DNA of 63,983 bases, filler included, from an uncultured Myxococcia bacterium (GTDB lineage: Bacteria; CAZTWC01), in the NCBI GenBank assembly GCA_964617105.1. It is 9 parts of 9 records of this genome, joined end to end, with 100 filler letters (N's around TTAATTAATTAA, not from the genome) between each part and the next. Parts side by side here need not be neighbours in the genome. Positions count along the whole stretch, not along the records: positions 36,749 to 43,944 come from CAZTWC010000193.1; 8 more parts are not named here. One strand, written 5' to 3'. How positions within the stretch are numbered: the stretch's first letter is position 1; every line of letters starts with the position of its first letter. Under the pieces are notes generated by a model that searched no databases, was not told the origin of the DNA, and saw only the letters and a program-made list of their open reading frames with translations. A program made the translations under genes and the position numbers. Positions 34,442 to 43,944 of this stretch are shown here, one piece after another.

Positions 34442-34614
34442 GACATCTCCTTTCAAAAAATTACCGTATCCGTCTGAAAATTAACTCTGAAGCAATAATT
34501 GCCGCCAAAGGACGTTTTCTGATGAACACAGACTTAAAATTAAAGGAGAATGAGGTGAGACTTTCGACACCAACATTTCTCCTTCCGCGAAGAGAAACTA
34601 TCTGGTTATTTATT

Positions 34615-34775
34615 AGGCATGGTAGGTCTTCCGGCTTACGAGTCTTCCTATTTCCAGCGCCTTCCCATGGCTAATATCCACAGTGGCATAGTGCCGGTTT
34701 CGTCATCGCTTACGGCGGCGGGACCGCGCTGGATTTGCACCAGCCTTCCCTTAACCAATACCTGAGAAATCGTTT
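34615..34775 (-). ncRNA. Cobalamin riboswitch
   Basis: Minus strand: AGGT..AAGGGAAGGCTGGTGCAAATCCAGCGCGGTCCCGCCGCCGTAA..GCCACTG..GGGAAGGC..AAGCCGGAAGACCTACC (B12 box); ends approximate. Confidence 0.93.
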
Positions 34776-36748: not shown

Positions 36749-38059
36749 ATGGTCGGCAATCCGCTCTACATCTGCCACCATTTTCATCATTTGTCTAATT
36801 TCCCGTGCCATATGCTTATTCAATTTTACCCTTGATATATGGGCTAAAAAGTCAAGGATCTCCCTCTCGGCCTGGTCCACTGTTAATTCCTGGCGCTTGA
36901 TGCTTTCCGAGGATTTTGAAATGTTCTTCCCTGGATCGTTAATCAATTCAATGGCTTCCCTGAACATGCAACGGGTTGTCAGCATCATTTTGTAGATCTG
37001 CTGTCGGGCTTCGAAAATGGCCATATTGGGTGTATCGATCAAGGTAAAATTGAGATGGCGGATTCCTGTCATCTTGTCCTGGGAATCCCTTACCATGAAC
37101 TGTCCCAGGCGGGCCAAGTATTTAACAAATGGCAGCATGATAACCGTATTGGTGATGTTGAAAATTGTGTGGAAGGCAGCCAGGTGGGTCGGTATGGCCA
37201 AAGCATCTGAACCGGGATCACCAGGGATGAAATGATCCACCATACCAACGAGTTGTCTGAATATTGCTATTGCCCATATTACTCCAAAGATGTTGAAAAC
37301 CATGTGCACCCTGGCGGTTCTGCGGGCATCGACATTTGCACCGATGGTAGCGAGGTTAGCGGTGATGGTTGTGCCAATATTTTCGCCCAAAACGAGGGCT
37401 GCTGCGGTTTGAAAATCGATGAGCCCATTGGCTGCTGCTGTCAAAGTAACTGCCATTGTAGCAGAAGAGGATTGGATAATCATGGTGATTATTGTGCCCA
37501 CCATCAATACCATGATTGTGGAACCGAGTCCATCGGCTTGAAAACGGTGGATCATGGCTGCAAGTTCAGGGGATTCATTGATGTTGGGTACACTATGCTT
37601 CAGAAAAGAGAGGCCCAGGAATAAACGGCCAAAACCGATAAGGACCATCCCCCAGTTGGTGAGACGCTCATTTTTAAAAAACCTGGCAAAAAAACCAATC
37701 CCCACCGCGGGCAGGGCAAAGGAGGAAATTTTTATTTTAAAACCTAATATGGCTACAATCCAACCGGTAATGGTTGTTCCGATATTGGCACCCATGATTA
37801 CGCCAATGGACTGGATCAGGGTTATGAGTTCGGCATTAACGAAACTTACAAGCATTACGGTGGTTGCACTGGACGACTGAACAATAGCAGTAATTAAAAA
37901 GCCGGTAAACACACCCAAAAAACGGTTACTGGTGATGGATCTCATGATTGCTTTTAGACGGTTCCCTGCTACCATTTGCAGTGATTCACTCATTATTTTC
38001 ATGCCAAAGAGAAAAACACCCAACCCACCTATCAGTTGGAAAATAGTTCCAAATGTCAT
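36749..38059 (-). CDS. Na/Pi cotransporter family protein (3'-partial)
   Basis: Two QSSSAT repeats, GANIGTT / GENIGTT, PhoU-like tail DVERIADH. Confidence 0.95.
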
Positions 38060-38134
38060 TTTACTCTCCTATTGAGACTTTCAGTATTTAAATGGTTGAT
38101 TTTTTATATAAAACACTACTCTTTTCATCACCTT

Positions 38135-40299
38135 TTATGTGTATGGAAATATTGGGTCTTTTTGCACAGCGCCCAAAATTACCGTATTTTCAACTGAATA
38201 TTCAGAACCTGTTATTTTCAATAACGATTTAATAATCTCATTTAAATCCACAGGTAGTCCTTTTTTAAATTTAAAATTTCCTCTGAGATTGATGTGCCGC
38301 CAGGCGACAGGGGATATTTTTTTCAAAATATTTGCTTCCTCATGCCTTCCTTCATCTATTAATTGCTCATAGAGTTTAGAAATGATCCAAATATTGTAAA
38401 AAATGATACAGTTTGCAACCAATCTGGAGCAATCATCCCAAATCTGCTGTTCCTGCTCTGTTTTTCCCTAAATTTTCCAGAGTAGGCATAAGTCACCGCT
38501 CTTTTTAATTTATGGTATGACTCATTACGATTAAGCGCCCTTTGAACACCATGCCTCAGAAGGAGGTCATCTACATATTTGAGGATATAAATACTATAAA
38601 CGATATCATTGAGTTCCCGTATTGCTTTTTGAGTTTTATTCTTTTTAGCGTGGGAACTCAACTTCCTTACAATAATGCTTTGGGTTGTAGTTTTCAACGC
38701 CAGGGATGCCATGATCCGTAAAATGTTACCTGCTTCCTCAATGATACGTTGCGTTTTCACCTTTCGACTCGGTTTTATAAGGCAATCTTTGTATTCTCCA
38801 GGGCTTTTAAAACCGCAAATTTTAGCGGCTTTACTCCTTAATCCCTTATACCTGGGAGCGAACATATAATCAAATAAATACAGCAGTATGTGGTTGATAT
38901 TATTGGTGCCATGAGTGTCGGTGGAGTGTCGGTCAGGTTTGATCTCGGAGGTATTGTTAAACAAAATATCAAAAACGTAATGACTTTCAGACTCGTTAGC
39001 ACCAATAATTTTAGCATTGATAGGGACATGATTAGCTGAAAGGGATAAAGAAGTCACCCCTTCCTTTAATCCGAAATATTTTGGTGAGTAACGGGCGTTT
39101 ATTGTCTTTATTTGGGTCTCAAATTTTTGACCATCACTGCTGGAATGGATGATGCCCTCTTCTATGTCGTAATTACTAAAAAACGGATTTTGTGCGATTG
39201 CATTGCTGATCATATCATTGGCGTTTCTGAGAGTCTCTAGACGGATAAAATTTTTTGCTGTGGAATTTAATGTATGGGAATTAATGTCTGATATTTCTCC
39301 CATGGTATTGAGACCCGTATTTGTGGCAAGGGCAATTATTCCCGCGATAATAGTTGAATTGTCAGCCTGGCTTTTCACATACCTGCCCAATTTATGAGTA
39401 AACGCTTCTAAAAATCCACATTGTTCATTAACAGCATGCAGTAAATCTCCGATTCCAACCTGCGGAAGATGGCTGTAAAAGGAATGATTTTCGGTATCTT
39501 CTGGTTTCTTATATGGAAGGCTCCATTTAATATTATCTCCCTTTCCTGTAATCTTTATCTGTTTATTTTGTCCATCTTTGATTCGCTTATTAACTGTTAT
39601 AATAAGGGTTTCCAGTTCTTTTTCCAGTTGAGCCAGCAACTCTTCAATCGATATTCTCAATCGAGGATAATCAATTGATTGAAGAATACTTTTCCAGTTC
39701 TCTTCCCATTGTTTTCTCTCAATCAGTTCATCTTCAAAACTTCGAAATTGTGTGCTGTCAGAACAATACACATCACCGGATTGAATTGCGCTTTGTAATA
39801 ATTGATAAATTAGAAATTCATATTTGTCCGTGTCTAATTGCTTCTCCTTTCGCTCTTTTCCATTCCCTTCATTTTGCCCAGTCTTATATAAATAGCGCCG
39901 AACCTTTTCAGGAATAAAATCTTGTGGAATATCATCTGTTTTAAATTGGCTGAGGCTTTTATTCTTTTTGAGAGATGATTTCAGGAATTCAACAGCCTCT
40001 ACTAAATGATCATCTATCGTTTGGCTTTCAAGGTCAACAGCTAGAAAGGGAGGGCGCAAGTTCATCTTGAAGGCTTGAGAACAGTTGTTGTAGTGATCCC
40101 ATTCATATTCAACCTCATCGAATGAGGCTTTGGACATGTATTTGCTAATAGAAGGGAATTTGGCCCTTTCTAGAATACCAAAGGCCACGTGTCTTACCTC
40201 ACCGAACTCGGTTTCATCAGAGATATTTTCATCTGTAAAAAGATGCCATACTTTACTAGCGAACTTTAGGTTTTTGTTGTTTTCTATTTTTAGTTTGTA
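38135..40299 (-). pseudogene. tnpA: Tn3-family transposase, 5'-truncated and frameshifted
   Basis: SSDGQK, HSTDTHG, FAPRY, ALNRNE; frameshift at the A5 run 38461-38465, alternate frame continues EQEQQIWDDCSRLVANCIIFYN..ISPVAWRHINLRG; N-terminal third missing. Confidence 0.9.
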
Positions 40300-40324
40300 T
40301 AAAGTGGACCCCTTTGTCAAGACA
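40300..40324. mobile_element. Putative IS3-family-like terminal inverted repeat at the Tn3 truncation point
   Basis: TAAAGTGGACCCCTTTGTCAAGACA where tnpA similarity stops; palindrome CCCCTCCTCCGGAGGAGGGG at 40360-40379; no partner end seen. Confidence 0.45.
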
Positions 40325-40606
40325 AAAATTAGGGTGGTAAATGGCAAACCTGAGACCACCCCTCCTCCGGAGGAGGGGGCTCCCAAAAACGGACTTAAGA
40401 GGTAGTATCTGATGGTAATGGAATATACATACAGATTCACTGTACGTACTTATTCAAATATGTGCACTTTTAATTGTCGTCACTATCTCTTGTCTTTAAT
40501 TTTTATTCTTTCGTTCGGTTTACTGGTTTTCTTTTTTTATATAGTGGCAACCAGAGCAAACTACAAAAGTGGCTTACCTTATTTTGAAAATGAGCAAGAG
40601 GAGTTA

Positions 40607-40744
40607 GCAAAAAATCCCACTGACCAACCACTGACCAACCAATTTAGGCGTTTTCAATTTTATAAGTACTTGATTTTACTAGAGAGAATTGGTGCCGAGG
40701 CCGCAGGTCATCCCTTTAGGGAAAGGCCGGACTTGAACCGGCAC
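40607..40744 (-). repeat. att region copy 1: arm repeats, IHF site and tRNA-Leu-type 3' end with a 25-nt insertion
   Basis: 40607-40717 matches 43834-43944 at 100/111 without gaps; minus strand reads GTGCCGGTTCAAGTCCGGC-[25 nt]-CCTCGGC-ACCA. Confidence 0.9.
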
Positions 40745-40969
40745 TTTAGGACTTTTTTGTCTATGATTTCAAATGGTTAGGTTTTGGATGATCGACAGGT
40801 GATCGACCTGGCGAAAATGTGAAGATTTTGGGTGGGAATGTGGTGGGATTTACAGTTGTTTCTCGAACTCAGATATCGAGGAAACCGTTGCTGCTACTCG
40901 GCGTACTACATTTATGGCTTACGACTAAATCTCCCGATCTGAATGAGAAAATGATTTCAGATAAAACTT

Positions 40970-41197
40970 TTATTCTCTTTTAGACAAAACAGATCTCAGT
41001 GCCGATTCTGCCTCATGTTCAGGAAATCTAGTCAGTAAAGATTCAAACACCTTTTTTTGGGCATTAACTTCATCTGTTGTGGTTACTCTGCTAAGAGCAT
41101 AGAGAATGTACTGATTCATTGAAACACTCTCTCTTTGAGCACATTCTGAAATATGTTTATGGAGGCTATCAGGAAGCCTTAATGTGATTCTGCCCAT
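40970..41197 (-). CDS. Antitoxin, HicB-like/RHH DNA-binding protein
   Basis: GRITLRLPDSLH..ESVSMNQYILYAL; directly downstream of the PIN gene. Confidence 0.85.
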   Translation of the reverse strand: MGRITLRLPDSLHKHISECAQRESVSMNQYILYALSRVTTTDEVNAQKKVFESLLTRFPEHEAESALRSVLSKRE

Positions 41198-41201
41198 TTT
41201 A

Positions 41202-41609
41202 CTACTTCTCCCTTATTTTATTCAGAAACTCAGAAGGGGTTAATAACATAAACCCCAATACTTTTGCGGCATTCTTAAAATCCCTAATATTCGATGTGAC
41301 GATTGCCGCATGTCCATTCATTGCACAGTCAATGACTAAATCGTCATCAGGGTCTGGAGAACTTGGTCGAAAAGTAATAATAATCGGAGTAAACTCAACT
41401 CGTGTCAACAAAGCCTGGATCGCTTTTTGTACTTCCTTGACTTTCTGCTCACTCAAATTCCTTGTTAAAACCGCCTCATACTCAAGTGCTAGAGCAGTGG
41501 AAACACATGGAGTTATCTTATTCTCAACCCACAAATCAATGATTCTGCCGCAAGTCCCTTTTCTACTCAGACCTTCAACAAGAATATTTGTATCAATAAC
41601 AACTCGCAT
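41202..41609 (-). CDS. PIN-domain toxin
   Basis: RVVIDTNILV, LEYE, DPDDD..DCA, IVTSNIRDF. Confidence 0.92.
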   Translation of the reverse strand: MRVVIDTNILVEGLSRKGTCGRIIDLWVENKITPCVSTALALEYEAVLTRNLSEQKVKEVQKAIQALLTRVEFTPIIITFRPSSPDPDDDLVIDCAMNGHAAIVTSNIRDFKNAAKVLGFMLLTPSEFLNKIREK

Positions 41610-41698
41610 CTACCACTATAATAGCACCATATATAGCGTCTCACAAGATTTTTTCTCTTCTGAGCATTTCGACATGTGGCAAATTTCGATCTCGAGGC

Positions 41699-41758
41699 CA
41701 ACCCGGGTGCGCTGGTTCTCCGCTGCAGGCTTCGCTCCGCCCCAGGGCACCCGGGTTG
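41699..41758. repeat. Inverted repeat upstream of the integrase
   Basis: CAACCCGGGTGC..GCACCCGGGTTG, 12-bp perfect arms. Confidence 0.7.
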
Positions 41759-41845
41759 TCTATCAGGCCTGAAAACATACTGACCTTTAATTTGCTAAGC
41801 CGCTTTTACAAGTGAACGCATCATCTCCTCTCTGCCAGCCTTTAT

Positions 41846-42855
41846 ATGGCCGACTGGGGTTTGTTCTGCAAAAAGCATGGCAACGAGTTTGCCACTGGGA
41901 GATTCATGGTCCGGTTCGGACGGGATATCAATAAGCGGTTCAGGACCTACTTTGAGGCGGAGCGTTTTCTGACCGGGTTGAGATATAAAATAGATGAGGG
42001 CACCTTTGACGCCAGGGATTACAAAAAGGACAATCCCCTCGGATTTAAAACCCTGGCCCATAAGTGGCTGGCGGTCAAAGAAAAAAACGTCAAACCCAAA
42101 ACGCTTTGCGGCCTTAAAAATAACATCGGCAAGGCTGTTAACACCTGGGGGGATACCAGCATAAAGGAGATCTGTTACGCTGAAATTGAGGATTTTCTTT
42201 ACGCCCAGGAAGTATCAGACAAGACCAGGTCCAATATCAAGTCCTGTTTGCACGATTTCTGGACCTGGCTGCGGAAGCGGAGGGTGATTACGCTACAGCA
42301 GTTTCCCGAGTTTCCGGAGATAAAATATGAGTTGGGCTGGCGACCTACATATCAATTCGACCGGGAGAGTTGCTGAAATTGCGGGAAGAGGATGTCAATA
42401 TCAAGATGGGGATCTTTATTATCCCGAGTCCCAAGGAGAAAAAGCCAAAGTTGGTGCCGATCCTTGAGGAGGATATTAAGTTGATCGAGAGTTTATCACG
42501 GGGACTGCCCCACATGGCATATTTCCGGCACACCAAGCGCACCCGGGCTGTTTGGGCGGGGACACCATTTGCCAAGGATTATCTCTACAAATACTGGAAG
42601 TTGGCCTGCGCCAACCTGGGAATCGAGGGAGTGGATTTATACGGTGGCACCAAACACAGCACTGCCACAGCGCTGAGAGAGGTTCTATCTCCCGAGCAAA
42701 TCCGCCGGGGCACCATGCACGCTACCAACAAGGCTTTTGAGCGGTATATGCAGAGTAATATGGAAGACGCCAGCCGGGTATATCAGGCGGCCAGGTTTTC
42801 TTTGATACTGTCGAAAAAAATCTCCACCAGTTCGGCGCATTCGCCCCGGGAATAG
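41846..42855 (+). pseudogene. Tyrosine integrase with frameshift/internal deletion
   Basis: First frame reaches YELGWR; second frame resumes TYISIRPGELL (catalytic Arg), YGGTKHS, MHATNKAFERY; linker between them looks too short. Confidence 0.85.
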
Positions 42856-42899
42856 CCAAAATTGTCGTATAATTTATCGATTAGGTCTGCTTTGGTCAT
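42783..42899 (-). pseudogene. ihfA: Truncated integration host factor alpha-like gene
   Basis: Own translation MTKADLIDKLYDNFGYSRGECAELVEIFFDSIKENLAA*; helical N-half only; overlaps the integrase tail. Confidence 0.8.
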
Positions 42900-42912
42900 G
42901 GTATAAAACCTT

Positions 42913-43275
42913 TTAAATTGGTAGAGAACGAATCCTGAAATGGCTTTCTGTTACACTTATTATTGCTCCAGTCTTAAGTTCATCTAAGTATTTGGCAACG
43001 ATTTGTTCAAGATAATAGTTAACCATCTCAGGGCGCATATTGCGTAAACGAAAAATGATAACGCTTGGTAATCTTTTTTGACTTGCGGCTAATAACTCTC
43101 CAAAATCTAGATCATGAGTCAACAATACTCGATTTTCATCTCTGGCTTTTTCTAAAATATCTGGGTCTTCAAGACGATCCAGGTTTTGCTCATGCAGATG
43201 AATTGCATCAAAACCTCGTTCTTTTAGAAACTTTACTGCGCCCGGAGAAATCCCCATATCTGCTAAAAATTTCAT
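42913..43275 (-). CDS. DUF5615 PIN-like toxin (VapC45-like)
   Basis: MKFLADMGIS, DPDILEKA, VLLTHDLDFG. Confidence 0.9.
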   Translation of the reverse strand: MKFLADMGISPGAVKFLKERGFDAIHLHEQNLDRLEDPDILEKARDENRVLLTHDLDFGELLAASQKRLPSVIIFRLRNMRPEMVNYYLEQIVAKYLDELKTGAIISVTESHFRIRSLPI

Positions 43276-43508
43276 GCGGTCTCCGCTTCCTGGAAAAATA
43301 CTTTCTCTTCTGCCAGCCAGGCAGCATATTTAAGTGATTGTTCGATGTCCTCTGGTTCCAGATATGAATAGGATTCAATGATTTTTTCGACATTCATGCC
43401 ATTGGCCACCAGGTTGATAATTAAGGAAACTGTCACCCTCATGCCTCGGATACAGGCCCGTCCTCCCATAATATCTTTATTAAAAGTGATTCTGCTTAGC
43501 CCTTCCAT
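43272..43508 (-). CDS. DUF433 antitoxin
   Basis: IMGGRACIRGMRVTV..YLEPEDI..LKYAA; 4-nt overlap with DUF5615. Confidence 0.93.
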   Translation of the reverse strand: MEGLSRITFNKDIMGGRACIRGMRVTVSLIINLVANGMNVEKIIESYSYLEPEDIEQSLKYAAWLAEEKVFFQEAETA

Positions 43509-43833
43509 AACTTATCTCCCAAATACGCTATCTCGGCAATAATATTGGTCAATTATTCTTTGTTAACTATTATACCACACCCCCGCCGAAACCGGCAAAC
43601 ACTATCTGTGAAACTATCATTCTCTATCATTTTGTGAAATTGTGTGAGCCTCCTGTCTATTTTTCCACTCCACCACTAAAACGTGCCGGATCCCACTCCG
43701 GCCACCGGCAGGAAATGACCCAAAAATCTTCGTAACTGCCGTAGAAAATTTCTCATGCCCATCGTCACATCGCCCCGAAAATCACCCCTCACATGCCACT
43801 ACATTTTTCCCATGACATTAAATGTGAATTAAT

Positions 43834-43944
43834 GCAAAAAATCCCCCTGACCAACCACTGACCAACCGATTTGGGTGATTTTGATTTTGTAAGTATTTGA
43901 TATTACTAGAAAGAATTGGTGCCGAGGCCGCAGGTCATCCCTTT
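43834..43944 (-). repeat. att region copy 2, cut by the contig end inside the insertion
   Basis: Ends TGGTGCCGAGG-CCGCAGGTCATCCCTTT, identical to copy 1 over this stretch. Confidence 0.9.

Follow-up and report, generated by a model that had tools for sequence, protein, structure and literature searches.

The window, which is the whole stretch of DNA analysed here (63,983 bases), consists of nine contigs of one metagenome-assembled genome (MAG) separated by runs of N. The MAG is repeat-rich, was estimated to be 96% complete, and comprises 489 contigs (4.07 Mb). Both copies of the sequence under study are located on one contig, C193 (window positions 36749-43944), which ends at position 43944. 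In copy 1 the minus strand carries, from 40742 to 40690, a T-arm-like hairpin, a segment of 25 nt, the 3′ strand of an acceptor stem and ACCA (Table 1). A sequence-only reading of the window had described the same layout and was correct in this; the start that it gave, 40744, takes in two extra bases (GT). We liken the T-arm of the window cores to those of Leu-type tRNAs, and refer to the cores as Leu-type on that assumption. The 17-mer forming the T-arm occurs at three places in the genome, on C193, C339 and C452. Because the 6-nt direct repeat CGGCCT stands on both sides of the Leu-type insert, seven registers are possible for it; two of them are listed in Table 1.

Copy 2 is interrupted by the end of C193. 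The end of its insert at 43928 agrees with the earlier coordinates, and a 28-mer common to both copies occurs twice in the window and in none of 100 shuffled sequences. Where contigs of the assembly overlap, their ends share exactly 55 nt: there were 34 directed overlaps at k = 55, and six other values of k gave none. By such an overlap one end of C339 joins the copy-2 end of C193, and C339 carries the whole T-arm, the 25 nt, the acceptor strand and ACCA; the claim that copy 2 contains the same insertion thus holds. The contig break at copy 2 is explained by the identical block of the two copies, whose 61 nt exceed k. In the RNA centroid fold of a 57-mer the hairpin of the insert (TCCC-TAAA-GGGA) is retained. 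The energy of this fold is ordinary (z = -0.98), the corresponding values for other cores being -1.43 and +0.90.

The two copies enclose an island of 3.2 kb (island B), which encodes a broken tyrosine integrase and two toxin-antitoxin pairs. Downstream of copy 1, in the stretch where the older element would be expected to go on, there is a Tn3-family transposase gene. With Pfam, the integrase pieces of the window alone scored below threshold. They were assigned to the tyrosine integrases because the C piece has 262 longer homologs; among the 120 listed, most are 360-420 aa long and many match PF00589 or are named integrase by their source. Compared with the closest homolog listed (414 aa), the window pieces cover residues 48-209 and 253-393, and the missing stretch (210-252) takes in the conserved ...SIRPGEL... 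segment of the family consensus. A tblastn search of the MAG bin found no integrase of this family besides the broken copy in the window.

Table 1. Features at the two core copies in the window, and core-bearing joints of the MAG
Feature	Position	Strand	Basis or remark
T-arm-like hairpin GCCGG-TTCAAGT-CCGGC, joint J1 (copy 1)	40726..40742	-	read from sequence
25-nt insert CTTTCCCTAAAGGGATGACCTGCGG, register of the sequence-only reading	40701..40725	-	between T-arm and acceptor strand
Repeat unit TCCCTAAAGGGATGACCTGCGGCCT, register of the repeat family	40698-40722	-	exact copies on C384, C193, C339
Acceptor 3′ strand CCTCGGC (40700-40694) and ACCA (40693-40690)	40690..40700	-	sequence
Copy 2 (joint J2), AAAGGGATGACCTGCGG-CCTCGGC-ACCA, last 17 nt of the unit retained	43917..43944	-	cut by contig end
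61-nt identical block, J1 versus J2 (C339 end / window copy 2)	40685..40745	-	alignment
Left arm, remnant of the downstream (older) element	40560..40689	-	GGTTGGTCAG direct repeats 40631-40640, 40620-40629; nhmmer L-arm
Right arm of island B	40746..40900	-	GTCGATCA repeats 40800-40807, 40789-40796; nhmmer R-arm
Left arm of island B	43760..43916	-	GGTTGGTCAG repeats 43858-43867, 43847-43856
HicB-like antitoxin (40970-41197) and PIN_3 toxin (41202-41609), island B	40970..41609	-	Pfam
Tyrosine integrase pseudogene, two frames (41846-42376, 42370-42855)	41846..42855	+	homologs
DUF5615 (PIN-like) and DUF433 pair, island B	42913..43508	-	Pfam
Tn3-family transposase, two frames	38135..40440	-	Pfam; DDE_Tnp_Tn3 positions 1-330 and 340-389
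Joint J1, Leu-type core	window copy 1		unit present
Joint J2, Leu-type core	C339 end / window copy 2		unit present
Joint J3, Leu-type core	C452		T-arm and CTTTCCCTTAAAGGGATG, then distal-left-arm-like sequence (by eye)
Joint J4, tmRNA-type core	C428		GCGGGTTCGACTCCCGC + CCCTAAAGGGGTGACCTTCGGCCTC + CGCCTCCACCA
Joint J5, tmRNA-type core	C327		end of another repeat (7 places in the genome) directly next to the T-arm
Joint J7, tmRNA-type core	C106		T-arm GCGGGTTCGACTCACGC directly into CGCCTCCACCA, no insert

Beside the joints on C339, C428/C476 and C327, the cargo consists mainly of AAA-ATPase_like and PDDEXK_9 proteins, a Fic protein and toxin-antitoxin pairs. C415 carries a 3′ fragment of tRNA-Leu(TAA) (C415:1666-1751, minus strand), which begins with the anticodon stem and precedes a terminator-like hairpin. 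This fragment adjoins a different tyrosine integrase gene (C415:1895-2624), and therefore represents a second island family, with an anticodon-loop subsite. A cobalamin riboswitch (RF00174, 95.3 bits) is located on another contig of the window (34604-34775, minus strand).

Neither window copy is a live tRNA gene. ARAGORN did not detect a tRNA at either copy, on C339 or at the other loci tested, and Infernal found no match to RF00005 at E ≤ 1 at either copy or on C339. The 5′ acceptor strand (GCCGAGG or GCCGAAG) is absent from the 400 nt upstream of the three Leu-type cores (J1-J3), and a 5′ acceptor strand is likewise absent from the 600 nt upstream of the three tmRNA-type cores. In the sequence-only reading copy 2 might have been the live gene. 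Extension of the contig past 43944 through C339 led into an island arm and an ORF, and not into the 5′ half of a tRNA: on C339 the T-arm is preceded by two GTTGGTCA repeats and by the end of a HATPase_c_4/Fic-like_C ORF, with no D-arm or anticodon arm. Copy 2 is thus another dead fragment. The crosswise path through the 61-nt repeat node would give a circular island of 3.2 kb, which does not contain a tRNA 5′ half either.

ARAGORN called 36 tRNAs in the MAG, all of them ordinary; tRNA-Leu(TAA), tRNA-Leu(GAG) and tmRNA were not called in the bin. From the isoacceptors that are missing, we guess that the target of the Leu-type cores may be tRNA-Leu(GAG). The host tmRNA gene was found with Infernal at C45:18477-18783 (101.7 bits, model positions 41-324 of 374), where the contig stops some 25 nt short of the T-arm of the gene. 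Its 5′ end, GGGGGCG, pairs with the tmRNA-type acceptor CGCCTCC, a G3:U pair included. The tag frame, read by eye, is ANDEMALAA. In Logan assemblies of two DNA runs the contigs end at the same base as the tmRNA end of C45, and in those of two metatranscriptomes they reach 5 nt and 1 nt further; the contigs of these four runs offered no extension and no loose ends at this position. As the stop is the same at k = 31 and at k = 55, it would be a sequence fork rather than a repeat, which suggests that the population forks in sequence just upstream of the tmRNA T-arm. Two other candidate genes were rejected. One, a tRNA with the acceptor strand CTTTCCC and no encoded CCA, was discarded because CCA is encoded by all six tRNA genes inspected over their whole length (three Leu, two Ser, one Tyr). 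The other, a tmRNA gene on C428 or C327, was discarded because the T-arm alone matches there.

The 25-nt insert is a single unit of a hairpin repeat that is dispersed through the genome in 31-36 copies, most of them between genes. The exact 25-mer TCCCTAAAGGGATGACCTGCGGCCT is present on C384 (twice), C193 and C339, and with up to five substitutions it has 36 matches genome-wide. The 12-mer core of the unit occurs 33 times against 0.49 expected. Though reading frames of at least 120 aa span 92% of the genome, 25 of the 31 extended-core copies lie outside any such frame. On C384 the exact 25-mer heads tandem arrays of 24-nt sister units. Arrays in C384:1-900 and C78:1-250, made of two to three tandem 24-nt units (TCCCACGGGGATGACCTKCGGCCT) headed by a unit with a TAAA loop, are parts of mosaics that include further modules, among them CAGATGCGCCGCTATC and ACGTCGAGGATTAAAT. 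Such mosaic arrays with the unit constitute a complex, lineage-specific repeat system, for which Rfam has no matching family. A variant unit, CCCTAAAGGGGT, lies 18 nt downstream of an intact tRNA-Cys gene (C66:6081-6092).

The unit of J1 and J2 belongs to the TGCGGCCT subtype. The unit of J4 is one substitution away from a genomic copy of the TTCGGCCT subtype on C26. In an Rfam search at E ≤ 0.1, eight repeat- or joint-bearing loci gave as their sole match the tmRNA T-arm on C428; Rfam has no RNA family for the dispersed repeat, and to our knowledge its consensus does not resemble any family with a name. We found no cognate REP-type Y1 transposase (RAYT) in the MAG. The only Y1 transposase there, a single PF01797 match, is a truncated IS200-like ORF of 105 aa that is not flanked by units.

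The sequence-only reading had proposed to look for the succession of T-arm, insert and acceptor in other genomes. The succession recurs within the same MAG (C339, C428 and, in part, C452). With the patterns used, the public collections, JGI metagenomes included, returned nothing. The repeat unit pattern had 0 matches in genome_contigs (185,579 species genomes); the T-arm plus unit pattern, GGTTCRANTCCN{3,10}CCCTAAAGGGRTSACC, had 0 in genome_contigs, metagenome_contigs and viral_contigs; and a 22-mer from the tmRNA end had 0 in metagenome_contigs, all in collections that may omit the MAG's own records. The T-arm plus unit pattern was also absent from 60 relatives, all of them kin at domain level only, the same-phylum set consisting of the MAG alone.

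At the boundary of the islands, the att-type sequence of the integrated elements is a tDNA 3′ fragment (T-arm, acceptor strand, CCA) split by 25 nt. The suggestion that these elements carry att sites with a modified core (attP) has proved right, in that their core contains the insertion. The MAG has six core-bearing joints: four with an insert, Leu- or tmRNA-type, one without, and one interrupted (Table 1). All six are island-to-island joints flanked by paired 8-mer arm repeats. Pairs of GTTGGTCA or GTCGATCA stand about 55-60 nt to either side of the core on C193 (two places), C339, C428, C327 and C106. The right arm of every joint has two such 8-mers, and the left arm, where present (J1, J2, J4, J7), has two more. 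Alignment and nhmmer show that Leu-type and tmRNA-type joints have homologous arms, and nhmmer profile searches yielded eight strong right arms and four strong left arms. Right arms homologous to that of island B are found on C452, C477 and C106; C477, C254 and C117 carry arm remnants that lack a core. The left arm downstream of copy 1 and the arm downstream of copy 2 are 86.7% identical over 83 nt.

Two of the joints are decayed. J3, on C452, apparently lost the rest of the unit, the acceptor strand and the arm repeats by a deletion at a GGGAT microhomology (read by eye); the hairpin loop there has one extra T. C327 was considered as a secondary integration site and rejected, as the flank of its T-arm is the end of another repeat found at seven places. 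This repeat of about 84 nt, which starts with TGTACTTGCCAAGCG, occupies C327:3067-3150 and six further places (C16, C106 twice, C69, C323 and C419). It always has a single orientation and sharp 5′ boundaries, and at C327 it abuts the last base of the tmRNA-type T-arm. The right arms start with the last 17 or so codons of a gene (...SEFEKQL and stop), the remnant in the window being at about 40850-40900 on the minus strand. The gene presumably resembles a putative transposase of the Rpn/PD-(D/E)XK type, and apparently intact copies of such genes are present on C477 (C477:612-1550) and C471.

The same genome also contains the uninterrupted state of the tmRNA-type core. In the C106 joint the T-arm runs straight into CGCCTCCACCA; the C428 joint has 25 nt more between the T-arm and CGCCTCCACCA, with a sister unit at the same place. 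Relatives of the integrase were compared at 34 of 35 IMG/VR loci (L068, a weak partial match, was left out). Eleven of the 34 have, on the strand opposite to the integrase and 40-411 nt past it, a T-arm that is directly joined to a 7-nt acceptor strand, one base and CCA. Five of these ends are tmRNA-type, three Pro, and one each Leu-like, Gly-like and Ser-like; two are full tRNA-Pro genes according to ARAGORN. None of the 11 contains an insert. The other 23 loci show no T-arm in the up to 500 nt at hand, the contig often ending there. The ancestral state of the core is the one without the insert. The idea that the 25 nt are an intron or form an extra arm of a functional tRNA finds no support, given that the insert is a genome-wide repeat unit, that one joint is insert-free and that the relatives have uninterrupted T-arm and acceptor ends. 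No Rfam intron family reached the gathering score anywhere in the window, and 25 nt are far too short for a self-splicing intron.

We therefore read the feature, with a probability of about 0.6, as a recombination core at the joint of tandem small islands of one tyrosine-integrase family, which is not a tRNA gene and whose insert is a host repeat carried passively. The islands form a decayed tandem array; we judge them decayed because the integrase is broken, a Tn3 transposase gene has been inserted and one joint contains another repeat. A joint consists, in this order, of the right arm of the upstream island, a 3′ end derived from a tRNA or tmRNA gene, and the left arm of the downstream island, and in the left-arm GTTGGTCA sub-lineage one REP-like host unit of 25 nt separates the T-arm from the acceptor strand. 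Illegitimate copying out of a repeat array, with microhomology as the guide, is the most likely way in which the unit came to be in the att core. CGGCCT on both sides of the Leu-type insert, together with the unit itself ending in CGGCCT, points to such copying; in the tmRNA-type core the repeat flanking the insert is 2 nt only. In the register of the repeat family the unit is placed 3 nt into the acceptor strand of the Leu-type core and 1 nt inside the T-stem of the tmRNA-type core. The two insertions are 4 nt apart relative to the tRNA structure, which argues against a precise structural site. Once in place, the unit would have moved passively with the 3′ half of the core, probably without any role at the RNA level. 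The decayed joints on C452 and C327 fit passive carriage. The insert is most likely a passenger, although its route of entry and its neutrality are what we infer from these comparisons.

Several points run counter to this reading. The 61-nt core is identical in J1 and J2, whereas the adjoining left arms have diverged (86.7% identity over 83 nt); at the divergence of the arms the chance of 25 unchanged bases is about 0.03 by our arithmetic, which hints at constraint on the insert or its homogenisation. The unit is at nearly the same place in Leu-type and tmRNA-type cores, which is unexpected for chance insertion into dead DNA. Neither the live tRNA-Leu nor the 3′ end of the live tmRNA was seen, and the MAG yielded no cognate REP-type transposase. 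Finally, if the crossover takes place in the T-loop, the insert-bearing 3′ half goes to the live gene, which might then carry it.

The last point leads to an alternative that we regard as unlikely, namely that crossover in or before the T-loop produces a live tRNA-Leu or tmRNA gene with the order T-stem, 25-nt hairpin, acceptor, the extra hairpin being tolerated, removed or inactivating for the gene. The att fragments of the relatives begin at the 5′ strand of the T-stem, so that the whole T-arm lies inside the identity block, and the insert goes with the left arm, the part that an island donates. Conservation of core and insert between the two islands is 100%, with the arms 13% apart. The genes in question, tRNA-Leu(TAA), tRNA-Leu(GAG) and tmRNA, are also those that ARAGORN did not call in the bin, and the tmRNA contigs end short of the T-arm by about 25 nt, those of the MAG and of two DNA runs at one and the same base, those of two RNA runs no more than 5 nt away from it. 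Against this, no full-length gene with the unit was seen in the MAG, 36 of the 36 ARAGORN tRNAs are ordinary, the C106 joint of the same genome is insert-free, and between Leu-type and tmRNA-type cores the unit has no single fixed structural position. New islands can enter dead joints too, and the arrays therefore do not prove that a live gene ever had the insert. An insert at 65/66 would place a 25-nt hairpin within the acceptor/T minihelix read by EF-Tu, RNase P and the CCA enzyme, and we know of no bacterial pathway that would remove it from there. We hold it to be quite doubtful that the islands hand an insert-bearing 3′ end to live tRNA-Leu and tmRNA genes, that this marine bacterium makes or has to repair RNAs with the 25-nt hairpin, and that the fork in the tmRNA sequence would be a trace of this.

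The unit might instead be a working part of attP, either a binding site for a protein of the host or the island, which would bend the DNA and bind the dispersed copies as well, or a spacer that prevents re-use of the joint. IHF sites bend the attP of phage lambda and are found in some REP clusters. Conservation of the unit together with the core would agree with a function of this kind, and so would its presence in two target specificities of one arm sub-lineage. The outer pair of the hairpin is changed on both sides between the cores (TCCC/GGGA versus CCCC/GGGG), but in the 31 genomic units this pair is T/A in 28, C/A in two and C/G in one, so that the two-sided change is a single case. The C106 joint and 11 related loci do, or did, function in the absence of the unit, and the analysis yielded no candidate for the binding protein. 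We give this explanation a slim chance compared with passive carriage of the unit.

Capture of the unit by the integrase itself, by integration at a unit boundary that resembles its crossover segment in a repeat array and excision at the next boundary, with one unit carried off between two copies of that segment, is conceivable, but the details fit poorly and we consider it improbable. CGGCCT on both sides of the Leu-type insert and the array boundaries of C384, which read CGGCCTT, would suit such a course. The joint, however, has one T more than the array boundaries. The loop of the captured unit is TAAA, as in first or solo units, and no CGGCCT precedes units of those kinds; the repeat that flanks the insert of the tmRNA-type core measures only 2 nt. 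The junction of T-stem and acceptor stem is one of the three crossover subsites that PMC4383910 gives for tRNA-targeting integrases, but the fragments of the relatives fit a crossover in the T-loop at least as well. A misjoining of T-arm, unit and acceptor by the metagenome assembler, conceivable in a repeat-rich MAG of 489 contigs that breaks at a 61-nt block exceeding the k of 55, is very improbable: the same order of parts is internal to C193, recurs on C339 and, with different sequence, on C428 and partly on C452, and a unit of 25 nt, well below k, could not have caused a false join.

In PMC4383910 and PMC3146451, tRNA and tmRNA islands are described as having a tyrosine integrase and a copy of the target 3′ end at each boundary, as forming arrays and as including some islands without an integrase of their own. 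The islands studied here resemble those of the Islander principle and the Dehalococcoides ssrA islands in the tyrosine integrase, the 3′-end copies at the boundaries, the arrays and the use of tRNA as well as tmRNA targets. Relatives of the window integrase adjoin tRNA-Pro genes and tmRNA-type ends, as in tRNA/tmRNA islands. Unlike in Islander-type islands, the copied 3′ end is split by 25 nt in four of the six core-bearing joints, there is a single, broken integrase, and intact target genes were not recovered in this MAG.

The repeat unit is similar to REP/BIME sequences in being a short hairpin present in tens of copies, mostly between genes, in mosaic and tandem arrangements, but in place of a REP-associated Y1 transposase the MAG has only the truncated IS200-like gene. 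Introns of tRNA genes are group I introns in the anticodon loop in bacteria, and bulge-helix-bulge introns at odd positions in archaea. The insert shares with them the extra sequence in a tRNA-like context, at a non-anticodon position as in some archaeal genes; it differs in being a dispersed repeat unit and in the lack of a full-length gene. Rickettsia palindromic elements are reported in PMC2229807, which cites Ogata et al. 2002, to be fused into tmRNA and RNase P RNA genes. They too are small palindromic repeats inside tmRNA- or tRNA-type sequence, but their host genes are live, whereas here the unit was observed in dead 3′ fragments at joints. No precedent for an att core that contains a repeat unit was found in the open-access literature searched.

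Two kinds of selfish DNA thus meet in this genome: a host-specific mini-repeat has lodged in the att core of an island and is copied along with it. Such joints will escape tools that map islands through matches to tRNA fragments; neither ARAGORN nor Infernal reported any of them as tRNA or tmRNA, and the Infernal tmRNA model matched their T-arms only, below its cut-off. If it were true that live genes carry the unit, this would be the first short, non-self-splicing insert at the junction of T-stem and acceptor stem in a bacterial tRNA and tmRNA.
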